Of a stretch of DNA of 64,000 bases, positions 51,982 through 64,000 are shown piece by piece. The DNA comes from a virus. Location: IMG/VR virus record IMGVR_UViG_3300017780_005043; one strand, given 5' to 3'. Below the pieces are notes generated by a model. It searched no databases. It was not told the origin of the DNA and saw only the letters and a list, made by a program, of their open reading frames with translations. The position numbers were made by a program, and so were the translations under genes. Position 1 is the first letter of the stretch. Every line of letters starts with the position of its first letter.

Positions 51982-52734
51982 TCATATTTTCGTATCGCTT
52001 TTTCTTCTAAGATAATAATTGAACTCTGCTATTTCATTTCCGTACTTCTTTAGAGTTTCTAGCTCCCCAATTTCTTCGATATGGTTAGCTGCATCAATAG
52101 CCTCTCCTAATGTTTTGAATTTAGGCTCTCCAATGTAATTGAATTGGTAATAGCAAGTCAAAACAAAAGAACCGTCTTTTTCACGTATCGTAAAGTTTGG
52201 AGCTTGCGCCCACTCTCCACTACCTTTAGCTACCCATTTTATCTCTTTGTAAAATGTATCTTCTATTTTTCTAAATTCTAGTTTTTCTTTTATCACTTTA
52301 TGGAAATAATTATTATCCATGTTCACAGCATATCCTTTACTATGTAGCCAAAATTTAGTAAATGTTACATCATCCACGCAAACACCCCTATTTTCTTTAG
52401 TAAATTCAATTTCTTCAGAGATTTCTCCAAAAATAGCATCATATCCATTTTTTTTAGCAATAGAATCTACATATTTCAAAACTTTACTGCCCAATCCTTT
52501 CAATCTAAAATCCTCTTTAATAAATATAGTTTCTAAAAATAAAGGATTTTTCCCTCTACACTCGTATTTGGTTGCTTCTTCCGAAGTCGATTCTTTATAC
52601 CCTATCAAAATATTCCCTTCTCGGACGTGATTTTCAATATATTGCAATTCAAGATTCATTAAAACATCATCCATTGGCTTTTTATCGGACTTATTCATAC
52701 TATTTATTAATTTGATTTTTATCAATATTTTCAA
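51982..52734 (-). CDS. GNAT-family acetyltransferase-like protein (standalone paralog of the 1663-aa protein N-domain)
   Basis: RLKGLGSKVLKYVDSIAKKNGYDAIFGE...FTKFWLHSKGYAVNMDNNYFHKVI aligns with residues 150-215 of 46036..51027. Confidence 0.5.
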   Translation of the reverse strand: MKILIKIKLINSMNKSDKKPMDDVLMNLELQYIENHVREGNILIGYKESTSEEATKYECRGKNPLFLETIFIKEDFRLKGLGSKVLKYVDSIAKKNGYDAIFGEISEEIEFTKENRGVCVDDVTFTKFWLHSKGYAVNMDNNYFHKVIKEKLEFRKIEDTFYKEIKWVAKGSGEWAQAPNFTIREKDGSFVLTCYYQFNYIGEPKFKTLGEAIDAANHIEEIGELETLKKYGNEIAEFNYYLRRKSDTKI

Positions 52735-52960
52735 TAATCTCCCAATCAGTTTCTCCGCTAAATCTACATGGGCTTAACATATCTAAGACATCGTACTCAT
52801 ATTCTCTAAGTAAGTCATTAGAATAAACCATTGTCAATGGATTTATATTTATGGCTATAAATAAATTTTGTCCATTTACAGTTTGATGCAAATTTATAAT
52901 ATCACCCTTTTGTAATTGTTTTCCGTTCTTATCTTTAAATATGAGCTTCATATAACGCAC
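52700..52960 (-). CDS. hypothetical protein
   Basis: 86 aa. Confidence 0.35.
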   Translation of the reverse strand: MRYMKLIFKDKNGKQLQKGDIINLHQTVNGQNLFIAININPLTMVYSNDLLREYEYDVLDMLSPCRFSGETDWEIIENIDKNQINK

Positions 52961-53126
52961 AAGATTTAAGATTACATTTTATTTTCAATAACCCGTTTTC
53001 CGTTCTATTACTCTTTCTAACTCCACAGTACTGTATTATCTTTGAACCACATTCCCAACGCTGCCTATGTTTGCAACTATTGCAAGTTAAGAAAGACTTA
53101 TTTTCTTCTATTTCAAATAGTAGCAT
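52935..53126 (-). CDS. small Zn-finger protein
   Basis: CNSC...C...C...C pattern. Confidence 0.35.
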   Translation of the reverse strand: MLLFEIEENKSFLTCNSCKHRQRWECGSKIIQYCGVRKSNRTENGLLKIKCNLKSCALYEAHI

Positions 53127-53547
53127 GGCTTAAAAATATATCGTATCTAATTTTTGTTAAATCGGGTATTGCGACAAATATTTTCCAATTTATATTATCA
53201 ATATCTCCTAATTCTAACGGCACTGAATAATCCAAAACACCTTGTTGATATTGTGATTTAGGAATTGAAATGTAATCTGAATGAGTTTTGGTTTTGTTTT
53301 TTGTTTGAAAAGTTATAACAACGAGGGATTTAAGCCATTTGTTATTATCAGAATAAATTCTTATTTTTCTTACACAAGCCCCATGAAGCACATCAGGATT
53401 ATCAATGTCTAAACAAAATAATTTATCTGCATAAGTGTTATTCGTTAGAGTAGAACTCGTTTTAAATATCAGCCCTGTCATTATCAGAAATTTTAATATT
53501 GTGTTTTTCAAAGAATCTATCAGCATATCCAGTAGAAGGTATTCCAT
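53113..53547 (-). CDS. hypothetical protein
   Basis: 144 aa. Confidence 0.35.
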   Translation of the reverse strand: MEYLLLDMLIDSLKNTILKFLIMTGLIFKTSSTLTNNTYADKLFCLDIDNPDVLHGACVRKIRIYSDNNKWLKSLVVITFQTKNKTKTHSDYISIPKSQYQQGVLDYSVPLELGDIDNINWKIFVAIPDLTKIRYDIFLSHATI

Positions 53548-53821
53548 TTATTTCATCCACTTTAGCGTGGTATCCATAGCTTAATGCTTGATACATATCT
53601 TGAACAGTGAACATATTTGTTTTAAAGAAAAATTTAATTACACACATCTTACTACACAAATGAATTTGAGTTTTCCCACAGTGTATGATTTTTCTATCAT
53701 AGTGTTCATTGTATATCTCTCCTTCTATTGTAATCCATGCCGAAGGTATTCTAGCATCATTCTGCCCTTTTATATGTGAAGAAGTTTCTTCCCCACAACA
53801 ATTGCACTTAAATTTAATCAT
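53462..53821 (-). CDS. Zn-ribbon protein
   Basis: CNCC...C...C...C. Confidence 0.35.
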   Translation of the reverse strand: MIKFKCNCCGEETSSHIKGQNDARIPSAWITIEGEIYNEHYDRKIIHCGKTQIHLCSKMCVIKFFFKTNMFTVQDMYQALSYGYHAKVDEINGIPSTGYADRFFEKHNIKISDNDRADI

Positions 53822-53845
53822 ACTGTTATTTTAATTTGGTTTTTT

Positions 53846-54052
53846 CTAATTCAATAAATACTTCGGTGTTTTGTCGCTGTTAGCAAGTACTATCAACTTA
53901 CCTCTTGGTGATTTAACTACGTGAATCTCATTCAATTCCATCAAGTCCTTTACATCATCTTCCTTCTTATAGAAAATATCGCTGAACTCCACCATTACTA
54001 TTGCGTTTCTCTCTAAAGATTGCAGTTGATTAATAAGCTCTGCCACTGTCAT
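53846..54052 (-). CDS. hypothetical protein
   Basis: 68 aa. Confidence 0.35.
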   Translation of the reverse strand: MTVAELINQLQSLERNAIVMVEFSDIFYKKEDDVKDLMELNEIHVVKSPRGKLIVLANSDKTPKYLLN

Positions 54053-54953
54053 TACGCTGTATTTTAAAGTTTCTCAATTTAGTGTTGTGAAGGTATTGAA
54101 TATTATTCTGTTTTACACAAACATTTACTTTAAAAATTAATCCCAATCCTGTAAAATAATTTTCAACCTGCTCTCTCTTATTTGGTAAAACGCTTATCCC
54201 ATCGGTGTTAAACTCCAAAACGCTGCTCCCCAACTGCTCAACAATTCCACTTATAACGGTGTAAAGTTCATGGCGTATGTTCATAAAAATCTGTTCATCA
54301 CGTTTAGATAGCACTTCCTTTCTCTCTGTGTAAACTCCATCGACAATATCGTAAGTTGTCTTTTCTCTCCTTCTACCTAAGAAGGATATGCAAAGCCTCT
54401 TTGCGTGTTTGTGTGTATCTAATGGCATATACCTATTGAATAGCTTCGTGGATATGTACCCAAGCCTATGCGCTATTTGCCAATAAGCACTTGAAAGGTC
54501 TATGTTGTAGAACTTATCTCCTTCTACCATAGCATCGTAAGTCATGTTGTACTTCTGTGATACTCTACCGTTGTAAGGTACTTTCAAGTCTAACAATATA
54601 GGATTCTTTTTCAGTTGGCTATTAAGACTTCTTTTAAAACCACTAATAAAAGCCACGAACTCTCTCGCTGGTAATCCCGTTTCAATTCCTTCTCCCGACC
54701 TTTCTGTATAAGCATAGTTGCCATTAACTAAAATGAATTTACGGCTACCGAACTTCTCTACTGCGAAGGGCTTCTTTTGAACCTTCTTGTTTTCGATAAT
54801 ACCTTTGAATGTCGTTGGCTCGCATGGTACTGCTCTGCTGTCTAAAAGAAAATCTTCCATGCTATTGATTGTTTTGTTTAGACAAAATTTCCGATAATTC
54901 TCTAAGTTTTTCAGCGTGTTCAGGTTTGAATATAAACGCATCCCATTGCCCAT
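54030..54953 (-). CDS. hypothetical protein
   Basis: 307 aa; no firm motif (see rejected list for the polymerase-like motifs). Confidence 0.4.
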   Translation of the reverse strand: MGNGMRLYSNLNTLKNLENYRKFCLNKTINSMEDFLLDSRAVPCEPTTFKGIIENKKVQKKPFAVEKFGSRKFILVNGNYAYTERSGEGIETGLPAREFVAFISGFKRSLNSQLKKNPILLDLKVPYNGRVSQKYNMTYDAMVEGDKFYNIDLSSAYWQIAHRLGYISTKLFNRYMPLDTHKHAKRLCISFLGRRREKTTYDIVDGVYTERKEVLSKRDEQIFMNIRHELYTVISGIVEQLGSSVLEFNTDGISVLPNKREQVENYFTGLGLIFKVNVCVKQNNIQYLHNTKLRNFKIQRNDSGRAY

Positions 54954-55134
54954 ACCTGCACTTGTACCCGAAAATGTATCTAATTCCGTGCTTCAATCTT
55001 TTCCAAAAACCGCATTTAACTAAATGAATAGAGCAATAAGAAATACTATCTTCTTCATCATGCTCAATGATTATTTGATGTTCACGGCTATCGCAATCGC
55101 AAATTAATACAAATGGTAATTCTTTCTTTTCCAT
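54862..55134 (-). CDS. hypothetical Cys/His-rich protein
   Basis: 90 aa. Confidence 0.35.
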   Translation of the reverse strand: MEKKELPFVLICDCDSREHQIIIEHDEEDSISYCSIHLVKCGFWKRLKHGIRYIFGYKCRYGQWDAFIFKPEHAEKLRELSEILSKQNNQ

Positions 55135-55139
55135 GCTAT

Positions 55140-55985
55140 TTATTTTATCAATTTTATGAAATCTGCTTTAGTAATCAACCCCTCTCTCAAAAGTTGAGCG
55201 TACTCCTTCACCTGCTCTGCTTTGGATTGTTCAATACTAGCTTTCAACCTCAATTCCTCTACACTATCACTACTTCCTTTTTTACCCTTTGCTTCCTTCT
55301 TCTTTTTCTCCTTATTTTTCTTTTTATTTCCTCTCTCAACAGGAAGGACTTGCGCTTCACCCTTATCAAAATCACTTTCACCATCGGGAGCAAAGCCATA
55401 CATATCTTCTATTGGCGTTCCCATTCCATCACACACGATAATCTTCGCTATCCATCTACCGTTCGCATCTTGTTCGGGAGGCAAGGTAGTAACACACATA
55501 TTTTCTCCTGCCCAATCACTGCTGTTATACTCTTCAGGGTCTTGTGATACAAATTCATTACAGTAATCTACGTAAGGCTTAAAGTATGTTGAGTAGTCGG
55601 CATAGTCCCCTCCCTTTAGTGTTGGTACTGAATAGTCAAATATATCTGAAACAAAGGTAACATTACTAGCGCAGTCGCTAATCATCTGTGAGTATTGCGA
55701 TAAGTCATAGAACGGCTTAATCTCAAACATCGTAGGAACAATGAAAGGTATCTTAACTCCCTCCTTTGGTTTCCTTGTTGGTGTTGTGGTCTTTAGGTAC
55801 TTGTTAATCCCTTTTATGGTAATCAACTCATTCCTATCTCTGAAAATCTTTAGTAGTTCACTTGCTTTAGCCCTTGCTAACTTCCTATTTGGGTACTGCT
55901 TCTTCTTTCTTGCTACTATATCTGTAATAAAGCCAATACCTTTCGTAGATACCGATGCCTTAACTTTATTTACTTTTTTCGCCAT
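55140..55985 (-). CDS. hypothetical protein with a Lys-rich segment
   Basis: 281 aa. Confidence 0.4.
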   Translation of the reverse strand: MAKKVNKVKASVSTKGIGFITDIVARKKKQYPNRKLARAKASELLKIFRDRNELITIKGINKYLKTTTPTRKPKEGVKIPFIVPTMFEIKPFYDLSQYSQMISDCASNVTFVSDIFDYSVPTLKGGDYADYSTYFKPYVDYCNEFVSQDPEEYNSSDWAGENMCVTTLPPEQDANGRWIAKIIVCDGMGTPIEDMYGFAPDGESDFDKGEAQVLPVERGNKKKNKEKKKKEAKGKKGSSDSVEELRLKASIEQSKAEQVKEYAQLLREGLITKADFIKLIK

Positions 55986-56077
55986 TTAAAAAATCCCAAC
56001 GGTTTTACAATAAAACAAATCCTGCTTCAGATATTGTTGCGCTGTACAAGTAAAGAACGACTGAACCGTTGGGATTT
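55986..56077 (-). promoter_or_regulatory. long-loop stem-loop plus T-run immediately upstream of the 55985 start codon (terminator/attenuator-like)
   Basis: Perfect 13-bp inverted repeat AATCCCAACGGTT (55992-56004) / AACCGTTGGGATT (56065-56077) with a 60-nt loop containing nested palindromes. On the minus strand it is followed by TTTTTT and then directly by the ATG. Confidence 0.4.
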
Positions 56078-56187
56078 ATATTTTTCATCTGAATTTCTTT
56101 TAAGAAGTGGTATTGGCGAAGGTAGTAAAATTTTTCTAATTTGGAATAGAAACTTTAAAAAAGTTCGCTATTGATGCGTAGTGAACC

Positions 56188-57048
56188 TTAAATTAAAATT
56201 ATACCCTCACTTTTTTCAATAATATCAAAGAATTGGTCGAGGTTTTCCAATTCATAGCACTCTTTTAACACTTCAAACTCATTATAATCACACCAAAAAT
56301 TATTATCCTTACTCCACTTAATCAAGTCCAACGCCATTCTATACTTCTTTCTACCGTAATCTACCTTCTCGTCATCTAGTTGATACATTGATGTTTGATA
56401 TGGTGCTGCCTTCTCAATAGCTACAAACACATAATGCTCTCTACCTAGCATATCTAAGTAGTATGGCACACTAATATCGTAGCCCCAACTGTAAATGCTT
56501 TTAGTAAACTCTTTCTTACCACTGTCTAAGCAAGTTTTAAGGTCGCCAATAGTGCTTTTATTCTCTGGCAGTATATCGGGGCGAATACGCATCATCAATC
56601 CCGTCTTTTCGTCTTGCTTGTAACAAGATACCTCTCTGAAGGAATCACGCATTAACTCAACCAATGGTTTTTTCACCCTTGCGCTATCAGCCATCTTTAT
56701 AATCATTGCTGCTTCATCATCAAATACCAATTGTTTACCCGTACTCTTAGCTAAGTTTTCATACGCTGCATACTGCGCTTGTCCTTTTGCCGTTCGTTGG
56801 TCGCACTTAGGAACTATCATGTAATGGTCTTGGAAAAGATTCGGCTCTAAAACTAATTCGTGGAACGCACTACCTACTGCTAAATGCCTTCTATCTTTTT
56901 CATCATCTTTCCCTTCTCCACCATACTTATTATTAAAATAATACTTAGGGCTTTTAAGGAAGTTCTTGATGTCGGAAGCAGAAATGTAGTCTTTCTTTCC
57001 TAGATACTCTTCAAAACTATCTTTTACATATTCAACTTGGTTTGTCAT
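56188..57048 (-). CDS. PD-(D/E)xK exonuclease (YqaJ/RecB-like recombination nuclease)
   Basis: GSAFHELVLE ... RIRPDIL ... IGDLKT ... Y..Q motif order typical of the PDDEXK_1 phage exonuclease family. Confidence 0.6.
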   Translation of the reverse strand: MTNQVEYVKDSFEEYLGKKDYISASDIKNFLKSPKYYFNNKYGGEGKDDEKDRRHLAVGSAFHELVLEPNLFQDHYMIVPKCDQRTAKGQAQYAAYENLAKSTGKQLVFDDEAAMIIKMADSARVKKPLVELMRDSFREVSCYKQDEKTGLMMRIRPDILPENKSTIGDLKTCLDSGKKEFTKSIYSWGYDISVPYYLDMLGREHYVFVAIEKAAPYQTSMYQLDDEKVDYGRKKYRMALDLIKWSKDNNFWCDYNEFEVLKECYELENLDQFFDIIEKSEGIILI

Positions 57049-57055
57049 GGGGTAA

Positions 57056-57289
57056 TTATTTTTGTATTTTTTTCCAATGCGTTATTGTAGTGTTGTAATC
57101 AACTCCCTTCACATAATTTATTGACATAGATATTTTCCCGTTAATTTCTCTATAAATAGCTGTTGTAACTATTTTTTGAGTAGGTTCAGATTCAGGCGCA
57201 CCAGCAGTTGCAGGAAGGTGCATAACTTGAACTCTTTCATTTAATGGAGGGTGTTGTTTAGAGAATCTAACCCATCTTTCTTTTTTCAT
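57056..57289 (-). CDS. hypothetical protein
   Basis: 77 aa. Confidence 0.35.
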   Translation of the reverse strand: MKKERWVRFSKQHPPLNERVQVMHLPATAGAPESEPTQKIVTTAIYREINGKISMSINYVKGVDYNTTITHWKKIQK

Positions 57290-57483
57290 TACCTTCTTTT
57301 TTTAATATTCAAACTTTTACAGTCAGGGCAGCTTAGAATTGATTCATTTGAGTTAAATAATTCAGCGCAGTCATTACATTCATAGTCAAAATCATACTCA
57401 CTCATAAAATTGTTATTAGTAAGAGCTTCTATTACAGATATGGATAATGGATGTATGCCTTTTTCGTGTTTATTATTGCCCAT
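57289..57483 (-). CDS. small Zn-ribbon protein
   Basis: CNDC...CPDC. Confidence 0.35.
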   Translation of the reverse strand: MGNNKHEKGIHPLSISVIEALTNNNFMSEYDFDYECNDCAELFNSNESILSCPDCKSLNIKKRR

Positions 57484-57485
57484 TC

Positions 57486-57866
57486 TTACTTTATTCTGTT
57501 TAGTGCTTGTATCAATGCTTCGTCAAAATCTGAACCTGCATAATCACCATCAATATGATAAACCCAACGAGTAGGCGTTACCCTATCATTGTACCATATT
57601 CTTGAAACATGGATATTGTGTTTCTCTTCTAGCCAATCAATCAATTGCTGTGGAGTAGGGGCAAACGTGACGCATTCTTTAACTACATCAGGAAAATCAA
57701 GAACCCAAGTTCTACCTTCTATAAACTCGTAATGGTATATACCTAATGTATTTCGCTCTATGATACTAGCTCTTTCTCTTTTAAAATAAAAACCTAAGCA
57801 TCTAGTATTAAAATTTTTGCTTTTTGCTAATTTAGCAACATCTATATTCACAAACAATTTTTCCAT
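57486..57866 (-). CDS. hypothetical protein
   Basis: ATG start at 57866 preferred over the TTG-type 57884 start in the ORF track. Confidence 0.4.
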   Translation of the reverse strand: MEKLFVNIDVAKLAKSKNFNTRCLGFYFKRERASIIERNTLGIYHYEFIEGRTWVLDFPDVVKECVTFAPTPQQLIDWLEEKHNIHVSRIWYNDRVTPTRWVYHIDGDYAGSDFDEALIQALNRIK

Positions 57867-57867
57867 A

Positions 57868-58029
57868 TTAAAAAAGTTCTTCAATTAAATCTATCAAAGG
57901 CTTGTCGCTATGTCCTGCTAAGTATTGAAGGAAAACAAATTGAATGTTCAATACATTCGGTTCTATTCCTTTCTTTGTCAATAGCTGAAGGATTGCCTGT
58001 TTAATCGTATCTGTTGTTTCGTTTTCCAT
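57868..58029 (-). CDS. small hypothetical protein (53 aa)
   Basis: Hand-translated MENETTDTIKQAILQLLTKKGIEPNVLNIQFVFLQYLAGHSDKPLIDLIEELF. Confidence 0.3.
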   Translation of the reverse strand: MENETTDTIKQAILQLLTKKGIEPNVLNIQFVFLQYLAGHSDKPLIDLIEELF

Positions 58030-58076
58030 TTATTTTTTAAATCCCCTGCAAAGGTTAGATTGCAGGGGTTTAACTA

Positions 58077-58847
58077 TTACTGTACAGGTTTAAATAAAAC
58101 AGGTGCATTACCGTATAAAGGTGTTTTACCATCCCATTTTTCTACAAATTGCTGCTGAACGAGTAAAGGTGTTAATGAGCGCATCTTTAGCTCATATGCT
58201 TCTTTCTGCGCTCTCGCTACTATAATAGTTCTTTGAGCCTCAATGCTATCTCTTACAAGTTTGTTTCTGCTTTCCATAGCCTGCTGAACCGCCTTGTTTT
58301 TATCATTGATAGCATTTACAATAGTAGACGGGTATTTCAAACCGCTGGTCAACTGCTCTAAGTGAAACCCTTCTAACTCCAATGCTTTAGATAGTGATTT
58401 TTGAACATCGTTTTCAAATTGCTCACGATTACTAACTATTTCATCAGTAGTGTACTTATTCATCTGAAGCCTAAAAGCATCTTTCACATAGTTAAACAAT
58501 GTGGTTTGAGCCACTTCCTCTAAATCTTTTCTGTATTTCTTGAATATAGAAGGTGAATGTCCTGCTATTACAGCAAAAGATAAAGTTGGGTCAACGGTGA
58601 AAGAACTTCCGTCTTTAGCGTTTACATCAAATGCGTTGTAATCTAAAGTTTGAACAAAAGTAGGTATTTCATAAACATCTTCAGTCCACGGGTTGTACCA
58701 AACTCTACCTGTAACCAAGTTAACATCCTGAACTCCTTTATCAGTTCCGTACTGTTTAACTAAGATTCCTTCATGACCTGCATCTACTCTTGTACATGAT
58801 GCTAATGTAGCGATAAAAATAATCGCAATTAATAATTGATTTTTCAT
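58077..58847 (-). CDS. SPFH/Band-7 (prohibitin/stomatin-like) domain lipoprotein
   Basis: Signal peptide plus lipobox LASC, SPFH-like beta-rich region and a long Ala/Gln-rich helix (QQAMESRNKLVRDSIEAQRTIIVARAQKEAYELKMRS). Confidence 0.5.
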   Translation of the reverse strand: MKNQLLIAIIFIATLASCTRVDAGHEGILVKQYGTDKGVQDVNLVTGRVWYNPWTEDVYEIPTFVQTLDYNAFDVNAKDGSSFTVDPTLSFAVIAGHSPSIFKKYRKDLEEVAQTTLFNYVKDAFRLQMNKYTTDEIVSNREQFENDVQKSLSKALELEGFHLEQLTSGLKYPSTIVNAINDKNKAVQQAMESRNKLVRDSIEAQRTIIVARAQKEAYELKMRSLTPLLVQQQFVEKWDGKTPLYGNAPVLFKPVQ

Positions 58848-58863
58848 ACTGTTATTTTAAATT

Positions 58864-59112
58864 TTATTTAATTAATTTTTTGGCTAAATACGCTCCTAAA
58901 AATATATTTCCTCCTATCAATACACTAAGCAATGCAATACCTGCTAAAAAAGCAACATCACTCGGTTGATTAATAAGTTCTGTCATTTGATTGAAAAGAA
59001 TCATCTCAATAACAATTAATATTGGTAGTGCTGTAATGATTGATATTAAAATTATCTTTTTAGTTTTCATCAGATTCAAAATTATTTGAAGGAAGTTCTT
59101 CTTCACCAACAA
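58864..59112 (-). CDS. small membrane protein (2 TM)
   Basis: 82 aa. Confidence 0.4.
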   Translation of the reverse strand: MLVKKNFLQIILNLMKTKKIILISIITALPILIVIEMILFNQMTELINQPSDVAFLAGIALLSVLIGGNIFLGAYLAKKLIK

Positions 59113-59605
59113 AAGTAGAAATTTTCTCTTCTCTTGCTTTATCTTCTAAATTATTTTGCTCTTCATTTTCTTTTTCAGAACTATTCAATTCCAAGTTCTC
59201 GAAAACATCATCTAAAGCCACTTTAGCAACTGCAACAACCTCTGAATTTACAACACTACCGCTAAAACGGTCTTTAATCTTCTTCATTGTTTCTTCAATG
59301 TCGTTCGCTTGAACCAAGAAAATTTCTTTTCCTTTCTTCTCCTTACCACTATCAGTATCAGCAAATACCGTTTGGATAGTTACTTTGTAGTAGAAGTCTT
59401 TCGTTTCATCAATAACAGTATCGTTTACATTTGAACGGCTAATTGATTCCATCTTATACTCATCAATGAACCCTTTTAGCTTTTCTGCTAATTGTGTTTC
59501 TGCTTCAATGAATCCTGTATCTTTTACTAGGAATTGTCCTTTGATTGATTGGATAGTACCATTAGGCAATTGCGTAAGGTAACTAATTTTGATTTGGAAG
59601 TACAT
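59060..59605 (-). CDS. hypothetical protein
   Basis: 181 aa with an acidic C-terminus. Confidence 0.4.
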   Translation of the reverse strand: MYFQIKISYLTQLPNGTIQSIKGQFLVKDTGFIEAETQLAEKLKGFIDEYKMESISRSNVNDTVIDETKDFYYKVTIQTVFADTDSGKEKKGKEIFLVQANDIEETMKKIKDRFSGSVVNSEVVAVAKVALDDVFENLELNSSEKENEEQNNLEDKAREEKISTFVGEEELPSNNFESDEN

Positions 59606-59607
59606 GA

Positions 59608-59817
59608 TTATACTGTTTCTTTTATTTTTAATCTTTTTACTAATTTTTCTACCGACAAAGAGTTTGAAGAGTGAAAGTAGCCATCATAGACTACTTTCAC
59701 ATTTTCTTTGGTTACAGGTAGGTTTTCGCTTGCTAAACAAGCCTTGATTTTTTGTTCTAAAAAATCTCCTAGAGTAGCCATACTATTTTTTCGCTTTAGC
59801 AGTTTTAACTTTAGCAA
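59608..59817 (-). CDS. hypothetical protein
   Basis: 69 aa; start possibly at the internal MATLGDF. Confidence 0.35.
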   Translation of the reverse strand: MLKLKLLKRKNSMATLGDFLEQKIKACLASENLPVTKENVKVVYDGYFHSSNSLSVEKLVKRLKIKETV

Positions 59818-60133
59818 CTACTTTTTTTGCAGCTACTTTCTTAGTTGCTTTTTTAGCAACCACTTTAGCTACTTTTTTAGCTTTTGCTTTAGGTGCTTCT
59901 ACTGAAACTGAAATAATTTTAGGAGCTACATTTTTACCTGAAATGTACGGAGCTTTTAACGCTGGTTTTGCAACCTCTTTAGCTTTAGCAGAAACTTTCT
60001 TAGTCACTTCTTCCGCAACTTTAACCGCTTTTTTGCTTGCTTTAACTGTTTTAGCAACTACTTTTTTTGTTGCTTTCTTTACTACTTTAGTAGCTTTCTT
60101 TGCCGATTTAACGGCTTTTTTCACTGTTACCAT
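59783..60133 (-). CDS. histone H1-like Lys/Ala/Val-rich basic protein
   Basis: 116 aa consisting almost entirely of K/A/V/T. Its first 30 codons are about 90% identical in DNA to the 5' end of DGR target gene 63351..63866. Confidence 0.5.
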   Translation of the reverse strand: MVTVKKAVKSAKKATKVVKKATKKVVAKTVKASKKAVKVAEEVTKKVSAKAKEVAKPALKAPYISGKNVAPKIISVSVEAPKAKAKKVAKVVAKKATKKVAAKKVVAKVKTAKAKK

Positions 60134-60163
60134 TTTGATTTATTATGATTGATTAATTGATTA

Positions 60164-60463
60164 CTAAAATTTTAATTCGTGTATTTGGTCTTTTATTTCT
60201 CTAAGTTTCATTACATCTTCGTAGCGTTCTTCTTTGATTGCATTGTGCATTTGAACTTCTATTGGCTCTCCTACCTTCTGCATAGTTATAAAGTATGTTT
60301 TAGCCCCAAATAATCTGTATTTCCTTTCAGCGTATTTATTTATTAAAACAAATCCTAGCTTTAAATAGTGGTTATACAGAATGTTTATTTGTTCAAATTT
60401 TACCGATTCAATAGTTACTATTAAATCTTTGTATTGGTTGAAAGGAAACATATTCATATTCAT
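60164..60463 (-). CDS. hypothetical protein
   Basis: 99 aa; ATGA overlap. Confidence 0.4.
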   Translation of the reverse strand: MNMNMFPFNQYKDLIVTIESVKFEQINILYNHYLKLGFVLINKYAERKYRLFGAKTYFITMQKVGEPIEVQMHNAIKEERYEDVMKLREIKDQIHELKF

Positions 60464-61659
60464 TATTTCAGATTTTTTGTATTATCATGAATGTAAGCAA
60501 CAACCTTATTTATTAAGGTTCTTGAGTTGTCAATGATTTTCTGTGAATCGGCTCTTTTCAATGTTGGGAATTTTATTTCCATTAATTCTTTGGCAAACAT
60601 AAGCATTTTTTGTTTATCAGTTGCAAGATTTTCTTTATTTTTTTCTTGTTCCTGCAATTTTATTTTTTCTTCCTCTGCTTTTTTCGCTGCATTTTCAGCA
60701 TCTTGTTTCGCTTTTAACTCTGCTTGTACCTTATCTCTTTCCGCTTGTAATGCTTCATTCTTTTTCTTTTCTTCGTCAAGTGCTTTTTGTGCTGCTGCTT
60801 TTATTCTGTTTGCTTCAGCTAAGGCTTCTACCTTCATCAATTCCTTTCTTTTTTCTTGCTCATTGAAAATCACTTTCTTATCCTGAAACAACTGCTCGAA
60901 ATCATCATCACTTAATAACACTATATCTGTGTCGTGAATATAATTAACTGTTCTTAGCAGCATATTTCTTTCATTCCTTACTAACTGTACTGCTTTTTCT
61001 TTCTCTTCTCTCTCCTTAGCCTCCGCTTTCAATCTCTCAATCTCTACTCTTTGTCTTTCCTTCTCTTCTGCTTCTAACTTAGCCTTAGCCTCTGCTTCTT
61101 CTTTAGCTTTTTGTTCAGCTAATATCTTGGCTTCGTGTGCTTGCTTCAAAGTTCCGTATAGTGAATCGAATGATTCTTGCGAAAGTTCACCTAAGTTGAA
61201 TAATTCCGCATCATTGCTGTATTGGCTCACTAATCTTACTCTCTCTCCTTTCAATGCTTCACGCTCTTTCTTTTCTTGAATCTCGGCAAACTTCTCTTGC
61301 TGCTCTAAGTGTTCTTCTAGTGGTATTATTTTACCTTCAATGAAGTTGTATATGCCCTGCACCGCTTTGTTGTATCGGTTAGAATCTTCTTTTAATGCTT
61401 TGCGCACTTTATCGGCTTCTACCCTTACTGCTCTCAATGCTAAACGTGCTTCCCTAGCATCACGCATCTTTGCTTTTTCCGTAGCATCCACCACTACTAA
61501 TCCTTCTGCTTTTTTCTTCCATTGTTCCATATCAGCAATGAATGGTTCAAACTTCTCTTTTATTAGTTGGCTTGTAGAAGAGTTAATCTCTAATCCTGTT
61601 TCTGTAATGATTGTTACCAAGTTGCTTGGTGTTAAATCTATTTTTGTTTCTGTGTTCAT
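60463..61659 (-). CDS. coiled-coil Glu/Lys/Ala-rich protein
   Basis: 398 aa with long EAKAKLEAEEKERQR-type heptads. Confidence 0.4.
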   Translation of the reverse strand: MNTETKIDLTPSNLVTIITETGLEINSSTSQLIKEKFEPFIADMEQWKKKAEGLVVVDATEKAKMRDAREARLALRAVRVEADKVRKALKEDSNRYNKAVQGIYNFIEGKIIPLEEHLEQQEKFAEIQEKKEREALKGERVRLVSQYSNDAELFNLGELSQESFDSLYGTLKQAHEAKILAEQKAKEEAEAKAKLEAEEKERQRVEIERLKAEAKEREEKEKAVQLVRNERNMLLRTVNYIHDTDIVLLSDDDFEQLFQDKKVIFNEQEKRKELMKVEALAEANRIKAAAQKALDEEKKKNEALQAERDKVQAELKAKQDAENAAKKAEEEKIKLQEQEKNKENLATDKQKMLMFAKELMEIKFPTLKRADSQKIIDNSRTLINKVVAYIHDNTKNLK

Positions 61660-61886
61660 GCTTTTATTTTTTCTAAATGGTTTTTCAAATCTACTATTCT
61701 ACTTATTGCATCGTTATACATCTTTTGGCTATCACAGGTCAAAATCAAATCTCTATGTGAATCGCAAAACTTTTTAATGTCGGTTATCTTTGCTTCGGTC
61801 TTGAATTGAATTTCTCCTTCAATAGTTCTGCAACGTTCAATGTACGCTAAGATATTAACTTCTTTGCCGTGTCGCTTAATTTCCAT
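61656..61886 (-). CDS. hypothetical protein
   Basis: 76 aa. Confidence 0.35.
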   Translation of the reverse strand: MEIKRHGKEVNILAYIERCRTIEGEIQFKTEAKITDIKKFCDSHRDLILTCDSQKMYNDAISRIVDLKNHLEKIKA

Positions 61887-61888
61887 AT

Positions 61889-62224
61889 CTAAGAAAATTC
61901 AAAATGTTCGTTTTCTTTTATTATCACCGTTGAAAAAGGAAATCCTTCTTTCGGCACTTTCTCAATAGTTTCTATCAAAATCTTAGAGCCACTAAAAAGG
62001 ATGAACTTTATTCCATTCATTGAGATTTGAAGATACAAACACTTAGGATGCTTTTCTTTGAATTTAGAATCTGCCACTTTATAATCATGAACTACAATGC
62101 TTCTATTCAAAACTTTATCCATCTTGATTTTATCTCCTGAAAATCCACTCGATTCTATCTTTATGCCAAAATCACTAAACTTTTTCATGAAGCAATTTTC
62201 TTTCAAGGTTAATACAGTTGGCAT
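61889..62224 (-). CDS. hypothetical protein downstream of the RT (not Avd-like; start likely the internal MKKFSDF)
   Basis: Beta-rich; overlaps the RT 3' end by 50 nt unless the later start is used. Confidence 0.35.
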   Translation of the reverse strand: MPTVLTLKENCFMKKFSDFGIKIESSGFSGDKIKMDKVLNRSIVVHDYKVADSKFKEKHPKCLYLQISMNGIKFILFSGSKILIETIEKVPKEGFPFSTVIIKENEHFEFS

Positions 62225-63134
62225 GAGAAGTCCAACCCCTGTAAGAGGCTATTGATTGCTTATTTTTATTTTTAGCTAACATCTTTGCGAAATTTTTCTT
62301 AATTCCTTTTCTCAATAGAGTATGCGTATGATAAAACTTGTATCCTACAAAATCAATACCTCTTACTTGTACTGGGAATATTTGGTAATTATTCTTAATA
62401 CTTAATTTTAAGCGAAGTTCTAAATATTCTTTCACTTCACCAAACAATTTATGTAAAAATTCTTTGTTTGATGAAAGTATTACAATGTCATCGGCATATC
62501 TGAAATAGTATTTAACTCCTTTTTGTTCCTTCATCCAATGGTCGAAATACGATAGATAAAAGTTAGCAAGGTACTGTGAAAGGTAGTTCCCAATAGGAAG
62601 TCCTTCGGCTGAATCTATAATCTCATCAAATAGCCAAAGCAAATCTTTATCCTTAAACTTTTTTCTAATCAAGCATTTTAAAACATTGTGGTCAATAGAA
62701 GGATAGAACTTTGTAATATCAAACTTTAAGCAGTATTTAGTATTCTCAACATCCTTCAAAGATATTTTCACATTGTTGGCTGCATCGTGAATACCTCTAT
62801 TTTTGATACAACTGTACGTATCTCTTACGAAGTTAGATACAAATATTGGTTCAAGAACATTCATTATTGCGTGATGAGTAATTCTATCGGGATAATAAGG
62901 CAGTCTGAAAACTAATCTCTCTTTTGGCTCAAAAACTTTAAATGTAGTGTAAGGTGAAGTTTTGTATTTCTTATCAACCAAGAATTTATGAAGATTTAAA
63001 ATATTTTCCTCTCTATTCTTATCGTGTTGGATAATTCCATACTGTTTCTTCTTTCCTTTTCTTGCTTTTTTATCAGCAAGAATTAAGTTTTCTATACTAC
63101 AAATCCTTTCGTATAAGTTTCCTATTCGTTTCAT
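62175..63134 (-). CDS. diversity-generating retroelement (DGR) reverse transcriptase
   Basis: RT motifs 1-7. DGR-specific GLPIGNYLSQYLANFYL (I-G-x-x-x-S-Q in place of the QGxxxSP of group II introns and retrons) and the YADD catalytic box (YFRYADDIVIL). Adjacent TR/VR pair with adenine-only differences. Confidence 0.85.
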   Translation of the reverse strand: MKRIGNLYERICSIENLILADKKARKGKKKQYGIIQHDKNREENILNLHKFLVDKKYKTSPYTTFKVFEPKERLVFRLPYYPDRITHHAIMNVLEPIFVSNFVRDTYSCIKNRGIHDAANNVKISLKDVENTKYCLKFDITKFYPSIDHNVLKCLIRKKFKDKDLLWLFDEIIDSAEGLPIGNYLSQYLANFYLSYFDHWMKEQKGVKYYFRYADDIVILSSNKEFLHKLFGEVKEYLELRLKLSIKNNYQIFPVQVRGIDFVGYKFYHTHTLLRKGIKKNFAKMLAKNKNKQSIASYRGWTSHANCINLERKLLHEKV

Positions 63135-63227
63135 TTTGCTTTATTTTTTGTCTTTTTCGGTTGCCCTACCAAAGCCAATCAATTAATGTTTATTTTTTGC
63201 CAAGAGGCAAGGTTTGCACTACCTACT

Positions 63228-63306
63228 ATTTAAAGCATAGGTGAGAGCTGACATTCGTATTCGTATTCCAATTGTCGTAATTCGAGTTAGAAAAACCGAA
63301 GCCTGA
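63228..63306 (-). repeat. DGR template repeat (TR), 79 bp
   Basis: Identical to VR1 at 67 of 79 positions; all 12 mismatches sit at plus-strand T, i.e. coding-strand A. The coding strand carries AAT/AAC-rich codons (AATTACGACAATTGGAATACGAATACGAAT). Confidence 0.85.
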
Positions 63307-63350
63307 ATCGAAAGAAAACAGAACTCGGCAGCGCACAACCTTTCGCTCAA

Positions 63351-63866
63351 TTAGAGCACCCACTCCTTGTAAAGAGAAGCGATTTTTTCACTATTTATTG
63401 CATGAAGGACTAACTCTATTGATTTAAAGCAAAGGCGAGAGCCGACATCCGTATCCGCACCCCAATCGACGTAAGTCGAGTTAGAAAAACCGAAGCCCGA
63501 AGAGTTAATCTCAAACCAAGCAAAATATTTATATTCATTGTAATTATCCCAATTAGGAGTCCAACCTTCATTTAGTGCTTTAGCTATAATAATTAGCTTG
63601 TAATAAGCTACTATTGATTTTTGGTGTTCTTCAGGTAGTGCATCTACCAATGGAAGTTTTTTAGAGTTTATTTTCAACACTTTACAAGCATCTTCAAAGG
63701 ATTTTACTCTTTCTATAATAGGAAGAATTTTAACCTCTTTTTTATCAGCAACTTTCATCGCTTTCTTAGTTACTTTAGCTGTTTTAGCAACTACTTTTTT
63801 TGTTGCTTTTGTTGCTACTTTAGTAGATTTCTTTACCGATTTAACGGCTTTTTTCTTTGTTTTCAT
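63351..63866 (-). CDS. DGR target protein 1 (H1-like Lys-rich N-terminus; C-terminal VR-containing domain)
   Basis: VR encodes SSGFGFSNSTYVDWGADTDVGSRLCFKS about 25 aa from the C-terminus. The TR template would encode SGFGFSNSNYDNWNTNTNVSSHLCFK. Confidence 0.7.
   Translation of the reverse strand: MKTKKKAVKSVKKSTKVATKATKKVVAKTAKVTKKAMKVADKKEVKILPIIERVKSFEDACKVLKINSKKLPLVDALPEEHQKSIVAYYKLIIIAKALNEGWTPNWDNYNEYKYFAWFEINSSGFGFSNSTYVDWGADTDVGSRLCFKSIELVLHAINSEKIASLYKEWVL
63423..63501 (-). repeat. DGR variable repeat 1 (VR1)
   Basis: See TR. 12 of 23 template adenines are substituted; 0 of 56 non-A positions are changed. Confidence 0.85.
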
Positions 63867-63903
63867 TTTATTACATTTTAAAATTGTTTGTTTTCTCTAT
63901 TTT

Positions 63904-64000
63904 TTACTTGTCGGAAAACAAGTCATTATATTCTTTTCTGAATTGCTCTCCTGCATAAATTGATAATTCTTTTGATTTAAAGCAAAGGCGAGAGCCGACA
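63904..64000 (-). CDS. DGR target protein 2, C-terminal fragment (gene continues beyond the window end)
   Basis: Reading the minus strand from VR2 gives ...FKSKELSIYAGEQFRKEYNDLFSDK, then stop at 63904-63906. The FKS junction is identical to target 1. Confidence 0.5.
   Translation of the reverse strand, partial: VGSRLCFKSKELSIYAGEQFRKEYNDLFSDK
63976..64000 (-). repeat. DGR variable repeat 2 (VR2), 3' end only
   Basis: TTTAAAGCAAAGGCGAGAGCCGACA is identical to the VR1 3' end and differs from TR at the same 3 adenine positions. Confidence 0.7.

Follow-up and report, generated by a model that had tools for sequence, protein, structure and literature searches.

The window analysed here, a 64,000-nucleotide stretch of phage DNA, breaks off inside a short sequence that repeats part of a nearby gene. 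This raises two questions: whether the fragment at the edge is the VR of a second DGR target, and why the two copies share three bases that differ from the template repeat (TR). In DGRs generally, a mutagenic cDNA derived from the TR replaces the VR. The initial annotation, which proposed a second target with its own VR, offered three explanations for the shared bases, namely fixed differences between the IMH of the VRs and the IMH* of the TR, a recent duplication of the VR region of target 1, and chance. We found that the window end carries a phage DGR serving three target genes, and that target 2 is a genuine hypervariable gene.

All parts of this element lie on the minus strand, in the order target 3, target 2, target 1, TR, spacer RNA and reverse transcriptase (RT). 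The DGR RT (319 aa; 62175..63134) was recognised by Pfam RVT_1 (E=1e-17), by the reverse transcriptase family PHROG 1423 (E=2e-120) and by the motifs IGNYLSQ (DGR-type [ILV]GxxxSQ) and YADD, and it is 53-60% identical to the RTs of crAss-like phage DGRs. A 111-aa ORF at 61889-62224 (minus strand) overlaps the 3' end of the RT gene; it shows no Pfam match, belongs to PHROG 19665 of unknown function (E=3e-7) and is followed by a DUF6965 protein at 61656-61886. A 217-nt intergenic region separates the RT from target gene 1 (63351..63866), an ORF with a PHROG 11581 match that encodes a 171-aa protein with a Lys-rich N-terminus and a variable C-terminal domain. The TR (63228..63307) is an 80-nt direct repeat with VR1, which was located at 63422..63501 in target 1 by comparison with the TR, and an 18-mer search placed the IMH* (GTCAGCTCTCACCTATGC on the coding strand) at 63235-63252 and the IMH of VR1 (GTCGGCTCTCGCCTTTGC) at 63429-63446. 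Two short ORFs over the TR (43 and 45 aa; 63219-63363, minus strand) represent the untranslated template in frame (SGFGFSNSNYDNWNTNTNVSSHLCFK) and are not genes.

At the window edge, a repeat search and direct comparison paired 63952-64000 with 63399-63447. Within this pair a block of 29 nt is exact (63972-64000 = 63419-63447, TTGATTTAAAGCAAAGGCGAGAGCCGACA on the plus strand), 4 nt longer than the 25-nt identity of VR1 and VR2 first reported, which holds. The edge fragment is in frame, 63904-63999 on the minus strand being translated as VGSRLCFKSKELSIYAGEQFRKEYNDLFSDK and ending at the stop codon 63904-63906. Repeat and translation agree in placing a second VR 3' end at 63976-64000 (the visible 3' part of VR2, minus strand, also picked up by the 18-mer search) within a second minus-strand ORF, the 3' end of target gene 2 (63904..64000; defined by translation, with the remainder taken from contig L001), and the translations likewise reproduced the stop at 63904 and the C-terminus quoted for target 1. 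The IMH of VR2 lies at 63982-63999 (minus strand; 18-mer search). The three shared differences were seen by direct comparison as well: the TR has T on the plus strand at 63238, 63242 and 63249, where VR1 (at 63432, 63436 and 63443) and VR2 (at 63985, 63989 and 63996) both have A, C and C, corresponding on the coding strand to changes of A to T, A to G and A to G. A search for the degenerate 18-mer GTCNGCTCTCNCCTNTGC with at most two mismatches returned three matches in the 64 kb (TR, VR1 and VR2), compared with 0.04 expected from shuffles. Given this excess, and the position of the block in frame and at the homologous place of a paralogous gene, the probability that the identity over 25-29 nt is a chance match is negligible.

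Contigs continuing the element were retrieved by exact-protein look-ups with the RT and target 1. Contig L001 (JGI Ga0181351_1000058) equals window positions 52175-64000 at 100% over 11,826 nt and runs 623 nt beyond the window end; the first 588 nt of L001 are overlapped at 100% by L020 (Ga0181346_1000748), which reaches a further 13.7 kb beyond, and L002 (ENA), from a slightly different strain, spans the entire cassette. Target gene 2 is complete in L001 as an intact minus-strand ORF of 198 aa (L001:124-720, window-equivalent 63904-64500) and contains the complete VR2 (L001:570-648, window-equivalent 63976-64054; L002:1401-1479). The extension thereby bore out a second target with its own VR and added a third: target gene 3, of 202 aa (window-equivalent 64514-65122; L020:13235-13843, L002:333-941), lies directly upstream of target 2 and carries VR3 (L002:782-860). 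In all three targets, each an intact ORF, the VR ends 24-32 codons ahead of the stop. Further IMH copies were found neither elsewhere in the window nor in L020, a megablast of window positions 61500-64000 against the phage collection gave no match, and scans of IMG/VR with exact and degenerate patterns returned nothing.

Several of these contigs break inside VRs (L001 in VR3, L020 and L004 in VR2, L003 in VR1). Because the complete target 2 protein is recorded on one contig only (29,870 nt), the 67-kb source contig of the window probably also ends inside target 2, in VR2. Five independent assemblies breaking in VRs would be consistent with repeat-induced tangles or with VR heterogeneity within the population.

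The extension past 64000 allowed the full VRs to be aligned. The TR and VR1 differ by 12 mismatches in about 80 nt, all 12 at TR adenines (coding strand), while VR2 shows 15 mismatches to the TR, 15 of 15 at adenines. VR3 also has 15 mismatches in each of two strains, 14 of them (L020) or all 15 at adenines, and the sole non-adenine change is a T-to-G substitution (TTT to GTT) in VR3 of L020. Between VR1 and VR2 there are 10 differences, every one at a TR adenine, and the two are thus not identical throughout as in a plain gene duplication. As the mismatches of VR2 all fall at TR adenines, target 2 has been diversified independently rather than copied from target 1. Comparison of L020 with L002 revealed 15 differences over 1,419 nt, of which 14 lie in VR3 and 13 of these at TR adenines; diversification is, to judge from these two strains, ongoing at least at VR3. 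Neither VR1 nor VR2 varied among the few contigs covering them, and in the protein collection target 1 occurs as a single variant, targets 2 and 3 as two each. VR2 and VR3 of L002 differ at only five sites and share the changes AAC to CGC, AAT to CGT and AAT to GAT. This sharing exceeds what independent randomisation would lead one to expect, and VR-to-VR conversion, a shared cDNA or convergent selection are possible causes.

These data also bear on the proposal that target 2 is a recent duplicate of the VR region of target 1 and simply inherited the shared bases. The identical 29-nt block and the homologous C-terminal domains of the two proteins agree with it, but the proteins are only 34% identical in amino acid sequence, the alignable DNA, confined to the surroundings of VR1 and VR2, is gapped and about 79% identical, and the VR cores carry the ten adenine-site differences described above. 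Moreover, the same three bases are common to about 130 VRs in 61 unrelated loci (see below). A recent duplication is therefore very unlikely, and targets 1 and 2 are, by their divergence, evidently old paralogues.

The remaining explanation, fixed IMH versus IMH* differences, was examined across related loci. A metagenome scan whose pattern accepted any base at each TR adenine gave 31 loci of clearly different DGRs. All of the approximately 55 VR matches have G, G and T at the three sites, and the TRs of these loci, located separately, end in GTCAGCTCTCACCTATGC like the TR of the window. To avoid the circularity of the scan pattern, a genome set of 79 loci was collected via an unrelated peptide motif, N[END]GWxP[ND]W, which is unbiased for the VR end; VRs were located by translation and TRs by ungapped search, and this set was then pooled with the scan loci. 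After pooling, a TR was available for 61 loci, and 129 VRs stood in good register.

In the pooled set, VR bases facing core adenines of the TR are near-random (for example A28 C34 G35 T32), and sites at which the TR has any other base are copied faithfully (typically 129/0). The three shared sites follow neither pattern. At the first base of the Gly codon, the TR has A in 57 of 61 loci and the VR has G in 120 of 120 cases where it faces A; at the second base of the Arg codon, the TR again has A in 57/61 and the VR G in 118/118. The third base of the Leu codon, which is synonymous, is A45, G8 or T8 in the TR, and VRs facing A have T in 90 of 92 cases, C in 2/92 and never A. Whereas A is retained at core sites in 20-60% of cases, it is retained at site 1 or 2 in no VR, and the similarity between TR and VR drops immediately past the Leu-codon site. 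The IMH block draws on a far narrower range of codons than the ALNEGW motif does within these genes. In the IMH, Leu is encoded by CTT in 90 of 93 copies, compared with six Leu codons in that motif; GTC encodes Val in 70/71 and TGC encodes Cys in 85/87, and GGA is never used for Gly. Two mutational sources of the fixed A-to-G changes were considered and rejected. A sequence-context bias of the RT does not account for them, because core adenines in CA context have mixed outcomes in the VRs (A30 C17 G68 T41), nor does methyl-cytosine deamination (CpG to CpA) in the TR, as by inspection many CpGs persist in the TR core. Overall, the comparison indicates that the three shared sites are fixed, family-wide IMH/IMH* differences and not products of ongoing mutagenesis, as the first of the three explanations had it; they recur in about 60 independent related loci. 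This reading agrees with published work in which IMH and IMH* are described, for nearly all DGRs, as imperfect repeats located after the A-to-N zone (Wu et al. 2018, PMC5758913), and with the start of BPP-1 cDNA synthesis within IMH* (PMC12875486).

The 5' arm, too, has fixed sites with A in the TR and G in the VR, some of them silent. Silent codon changes from TR to VR are TCA to TCG (50/52), GCA to GCG (6/7) and CCA to CCG (6/6), and the others are AGG to GGG (34/34), AGT to GGT (24/26) and CAG to CGG (19/21). TC[A/G] makes up most of the fixed arm sites, and in nearly all loci the two A/G sites of the 3' arm are of this kind. Between these two fixed sites lie the third bases of the Gly and Ser codons (+2 and +5), which are silent and differ among loci (C/T/G and T/C/G, respectively).

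A further reading has to be weighed here, namely that all three sites are randomised at every homing and that only recipients restoring Gly (GGC) and Arg (CGC) survive, so that purifying selection on the protein, and not a code in the IMH, keeps the bases constant. Gly and Arg at the fixed-site codons are indeed invariant in the protein family (G142 and R144, together with S143 and L145, in 68 and 98 family members), and the silent +2 and +5 bases match between the TR and its own VRs in 129 of 129 cases each, as expected of a segment copied from the TR. Protein selection, however, does not explain why the synonymous third site is T in 90/92 VRs and never A, or why silent sites of the 5' arm change from TCA to TCG, GCA to GCG and CCA to CCG almost without exception. 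Nor does it sit well with the lack of A at sites 1 and 2 in every VR as against its frequent retention in the core, or with an A at both sites in the TRs of 57 of 61 loci: since a G in the TR would spare most homing events from waste, the A of the TR itself appears to be selected. We therefore consider this explanation improbable as a whole, although selection at the protein level could contribute to sites 1 and 2.

For the arm pattern as a whole, three simple causes were tried and set aside. Protein selection alone leaves the silent sites unaccounted for, raw mutagenesis the absence of retained A, and a simple lack of homology the covariation of neighbouring bases. Dual selection, by which A would be kept in the donor and G in the recipients, appears to be the most economical reading.

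Taken together, the locus is a DGR with three separately diversified VRs, in which the bases shared by VR1 and VR2 are very probably fixed IMH versus IMH* differences that would distinguish donor from recipient. By analogy with DGRs generally, the TR and spacer would be transcribed, and the RT would copy the TR into cDNA, misincorporating opposite adenines; in all three paralogous target genes, the homologous VR at the 3' end would then give way to this cDNA. Each VR consists of a hypervariable core between invariant arms, and the 25-29 nt at 63972-64000 represent the IMH of VR2, which forms its 3' arm. The identity of the VR2 arm to the VR1 arm follows from this segment being held constant in every recipient. 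The fixed differences between IMH (VR: GTCgGCTCTCgCCTt) and IMH* (TR: GTCaGCTCTCaCCTa) would separate recipient from donor, and the zone of random substitution would stop just upstream of them. We infer from the comparative data that these differences bear on the directionality of homing and on the boundary of cDNA transfer. The covariation of TR and VR at +2 and +5 suggests that information crosses the segment, or that there is a pairing constraint, and is awkward for a simple boundary beyond which nothing is transferred.

The features surrounding the repeats agree with a DGR. The spacer between the TR and the RT start (63132..63214, minus strand) matches Rfam RT-17 (RF03020) with 46.3 bits (gathering score 40.4; E=1.6e-7), the match ending at the RT start codon; it also matches RT-18 and RT-14 more weakly and below threshold. 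The same architecture, a hairpin plus A-run and a three-way structure, occurs with compensatory changes in 53 related spacers, of which RNAalifold recovered only the first hairpin and the outer helix. By eye, many related loci have a GCATA-like segment just ahead of the first spacer hairpin, with which the end of the TR (CTATGC) could apparently pair. The initial annotation had also suggested looking for a GC-rich IMH plus a hairpin at the VR 3' ends. The IMH is GC-rich, but downstream of it there is no GC-rich inverted repeat, and DNA folds of the three VR 3' flanks gave z values of +0.75 to -0.41. A GC-rich hairpin or cruciform downstream of the IMH occurs in only 34% of DGRs (PMC5758913) and is thus not required for DGR membership. 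Likewise, no Avd-like Pfam match was found in 16 neighbouring ORFs, which is expected for lineage 3, whose DGRs lack avd (PMC5758913). A DGR-type RT, adenine-specific TR/VR mismatches, VRs at the 3' ends of genes, non-identical IMH and IMH*, and natural diversification are all present.

By its architecture, spacer, VR end and crAss-like RT relatives, the element would fit the Avd-less lineage 3/CLec3 type. It shares with this type (Wu et al. 2018, NAR 46:11, PMC5758913) the order target-TR-RT, with no avd found, as well as hosts among Bacteroidota and relatives, and its VR end, ...GSRLC, matches SRLC/A, the IMH-region residues of lineage 3/CLec3 (PMC7290462). The closest annotated relatives of the RT belong to crAss-like phage DGRs, and one such RT, that of crAssphage LMMB, has been placed in lineage 3 (PMC7290462). 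In crAssphage cr60_1, TR and VR likewise form TTCaGGC/TTCgGGC and GTCaG/GTCgG pairs, and the spacer hairpin recurs; the RT of this crAss-like phage is 59% identical, and its target is of a different tail-protein type. In contrast to lineage 3 and crAss-like DGRs, the targets described here are small (171-202 aa), belong to PHROG 11581 and are not tail-fibre- or sulfatase-like, and three of them stand in tandem amid early or recombination-type genes.

BPP-1 (mtd-VR/avd/TR/brt) resembles the present element in its adenine-specific TR-to-VR differences, in the structured spacer RNA between TR and RT, and in that the VR ends in a GC-rich IMH and the TR in an IMH* that is not identical to it. The two differ in that no Avd and no GC-rich inverted repeat past the IMH were found here, and that three targets are served instead of one. 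The GC14 element of BPP-1 is the same in both repeats, and the IMH/IMH* differences of that phage come after it. The IMH/IMH* differences of the present element, unlike those of BPP-1, are all A in the TR and G or T in the VR and lie inside the GC-rich element.

One TR and one RT serve tandem VR-bearing paralogues with differing mutation patterns here, as in other multi-target DGRs. The initial annotation regarded such elements as a minority, which is true of DGRs overall (about 15%, Stenotrophomonas having as many as eight targets in tandem; Wu et al. 2018, PMC5758913) but not of this clade. Among the 80 best-scoring related genome loci, a selection that may introduce ascertainment bias, all 46 with a detectable TR have two to four VRs, and by this count two or more targets are apparently the rule in the clade.

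The conserved A/G differences in the arms lead to a more specific idea, which we put forward tentatively. In Avd-less lineage-3 DGRs, a TC[A/G] code in the arms, with A in the TR and G in the VR, may tell donor from recipient, being immune to mutagenesis while its silent neighbours co-evolve. If this were true, the arms would serve for annealing or recognition, matching the TR and yet not being overwritten by it. A possible reason for the choice of A and G would be that a cDNA T opposite the G of the VR still wobble-pairs; alternatively, motifs containing TCG could mark a repeat as recipient.

The target proteins themselves have no Pfam family match and fall into PHROG 11581, of unknown function (target 1, E=1e-25). 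Their family comprises 286 homologues, mostly of 120-160 aa and including a Chryseobacterium protein of 123 aa, in which G-S-R-L is invariant, and the hosts of related loci are nearly all Bacteroidota and relatives (Ignavibacteria, Chlorobi). Two AF2 models of the targets are confident except in the VR loop (target 1, pLDDT 81), and BFVD returned matches only to uncharacterised phage proteins; no C-type lectin fold was detectable in the targets, whose variable domain may be a reduced form of this fold or a new scaffold. N-terminally the three targets differ, with a Lys-rich region, a hydrophobic anchor and a small extra domain; by inspection, the hydrophobic stretch of target 2 resembles a membrane anchor. 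The Lys-rich N-terminus of target 1 (63735-63866, about 40 codons) is about 90% identical in DNA to 60002-60133, the N-terminus of a 116-aa Lys-rich ORF at 59783-60133 on the same (minus) strand. The comparison was made by DNA alignment, BLASTP being uninformative owing to composition correction, and the match looks like a recent duplication of a module or its fusion onto a DGR target. Elsewhere in the window, the eight largest ORFs, in 15630-51027, all lie on the minus strand and encode 388-1663 aa; six of them lack any PHROG match, and the other two match only PHROG families of unknown function. The lineage of this phage appears to have been poorly sampled.

For the annotation of this phage, these results mean a DGR with three live targets instead of one, a true VR in the sequence at the window edge, and shared bases that are a structural feature of the element, not noise. 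They also draw attention to a small target family that is widespread in Bacteroidota phages and prophages and has no known function or recognisable fold. The find itself is a normal part of a three-target DGR of known lineage, and it is the family-wide A/G differences in the arms that merit follow-up. The approximately 130 VRs provide a clean natural experiment on the point at which mutagenic homing ends in DGRs without Avd, the same VRs having random bases at core adenines and a near-invariant non-A base, mostly G, at a few arm adenines, silent ones included. The step at which the cDNA of DGRs is integrated, and directed to the VR instead of the TR, is still unsolved (PMC12875486), and a conserved difference between donor and recipient that can be swapped by mutagenesis would offer a direct handle on this VR-targeting step.
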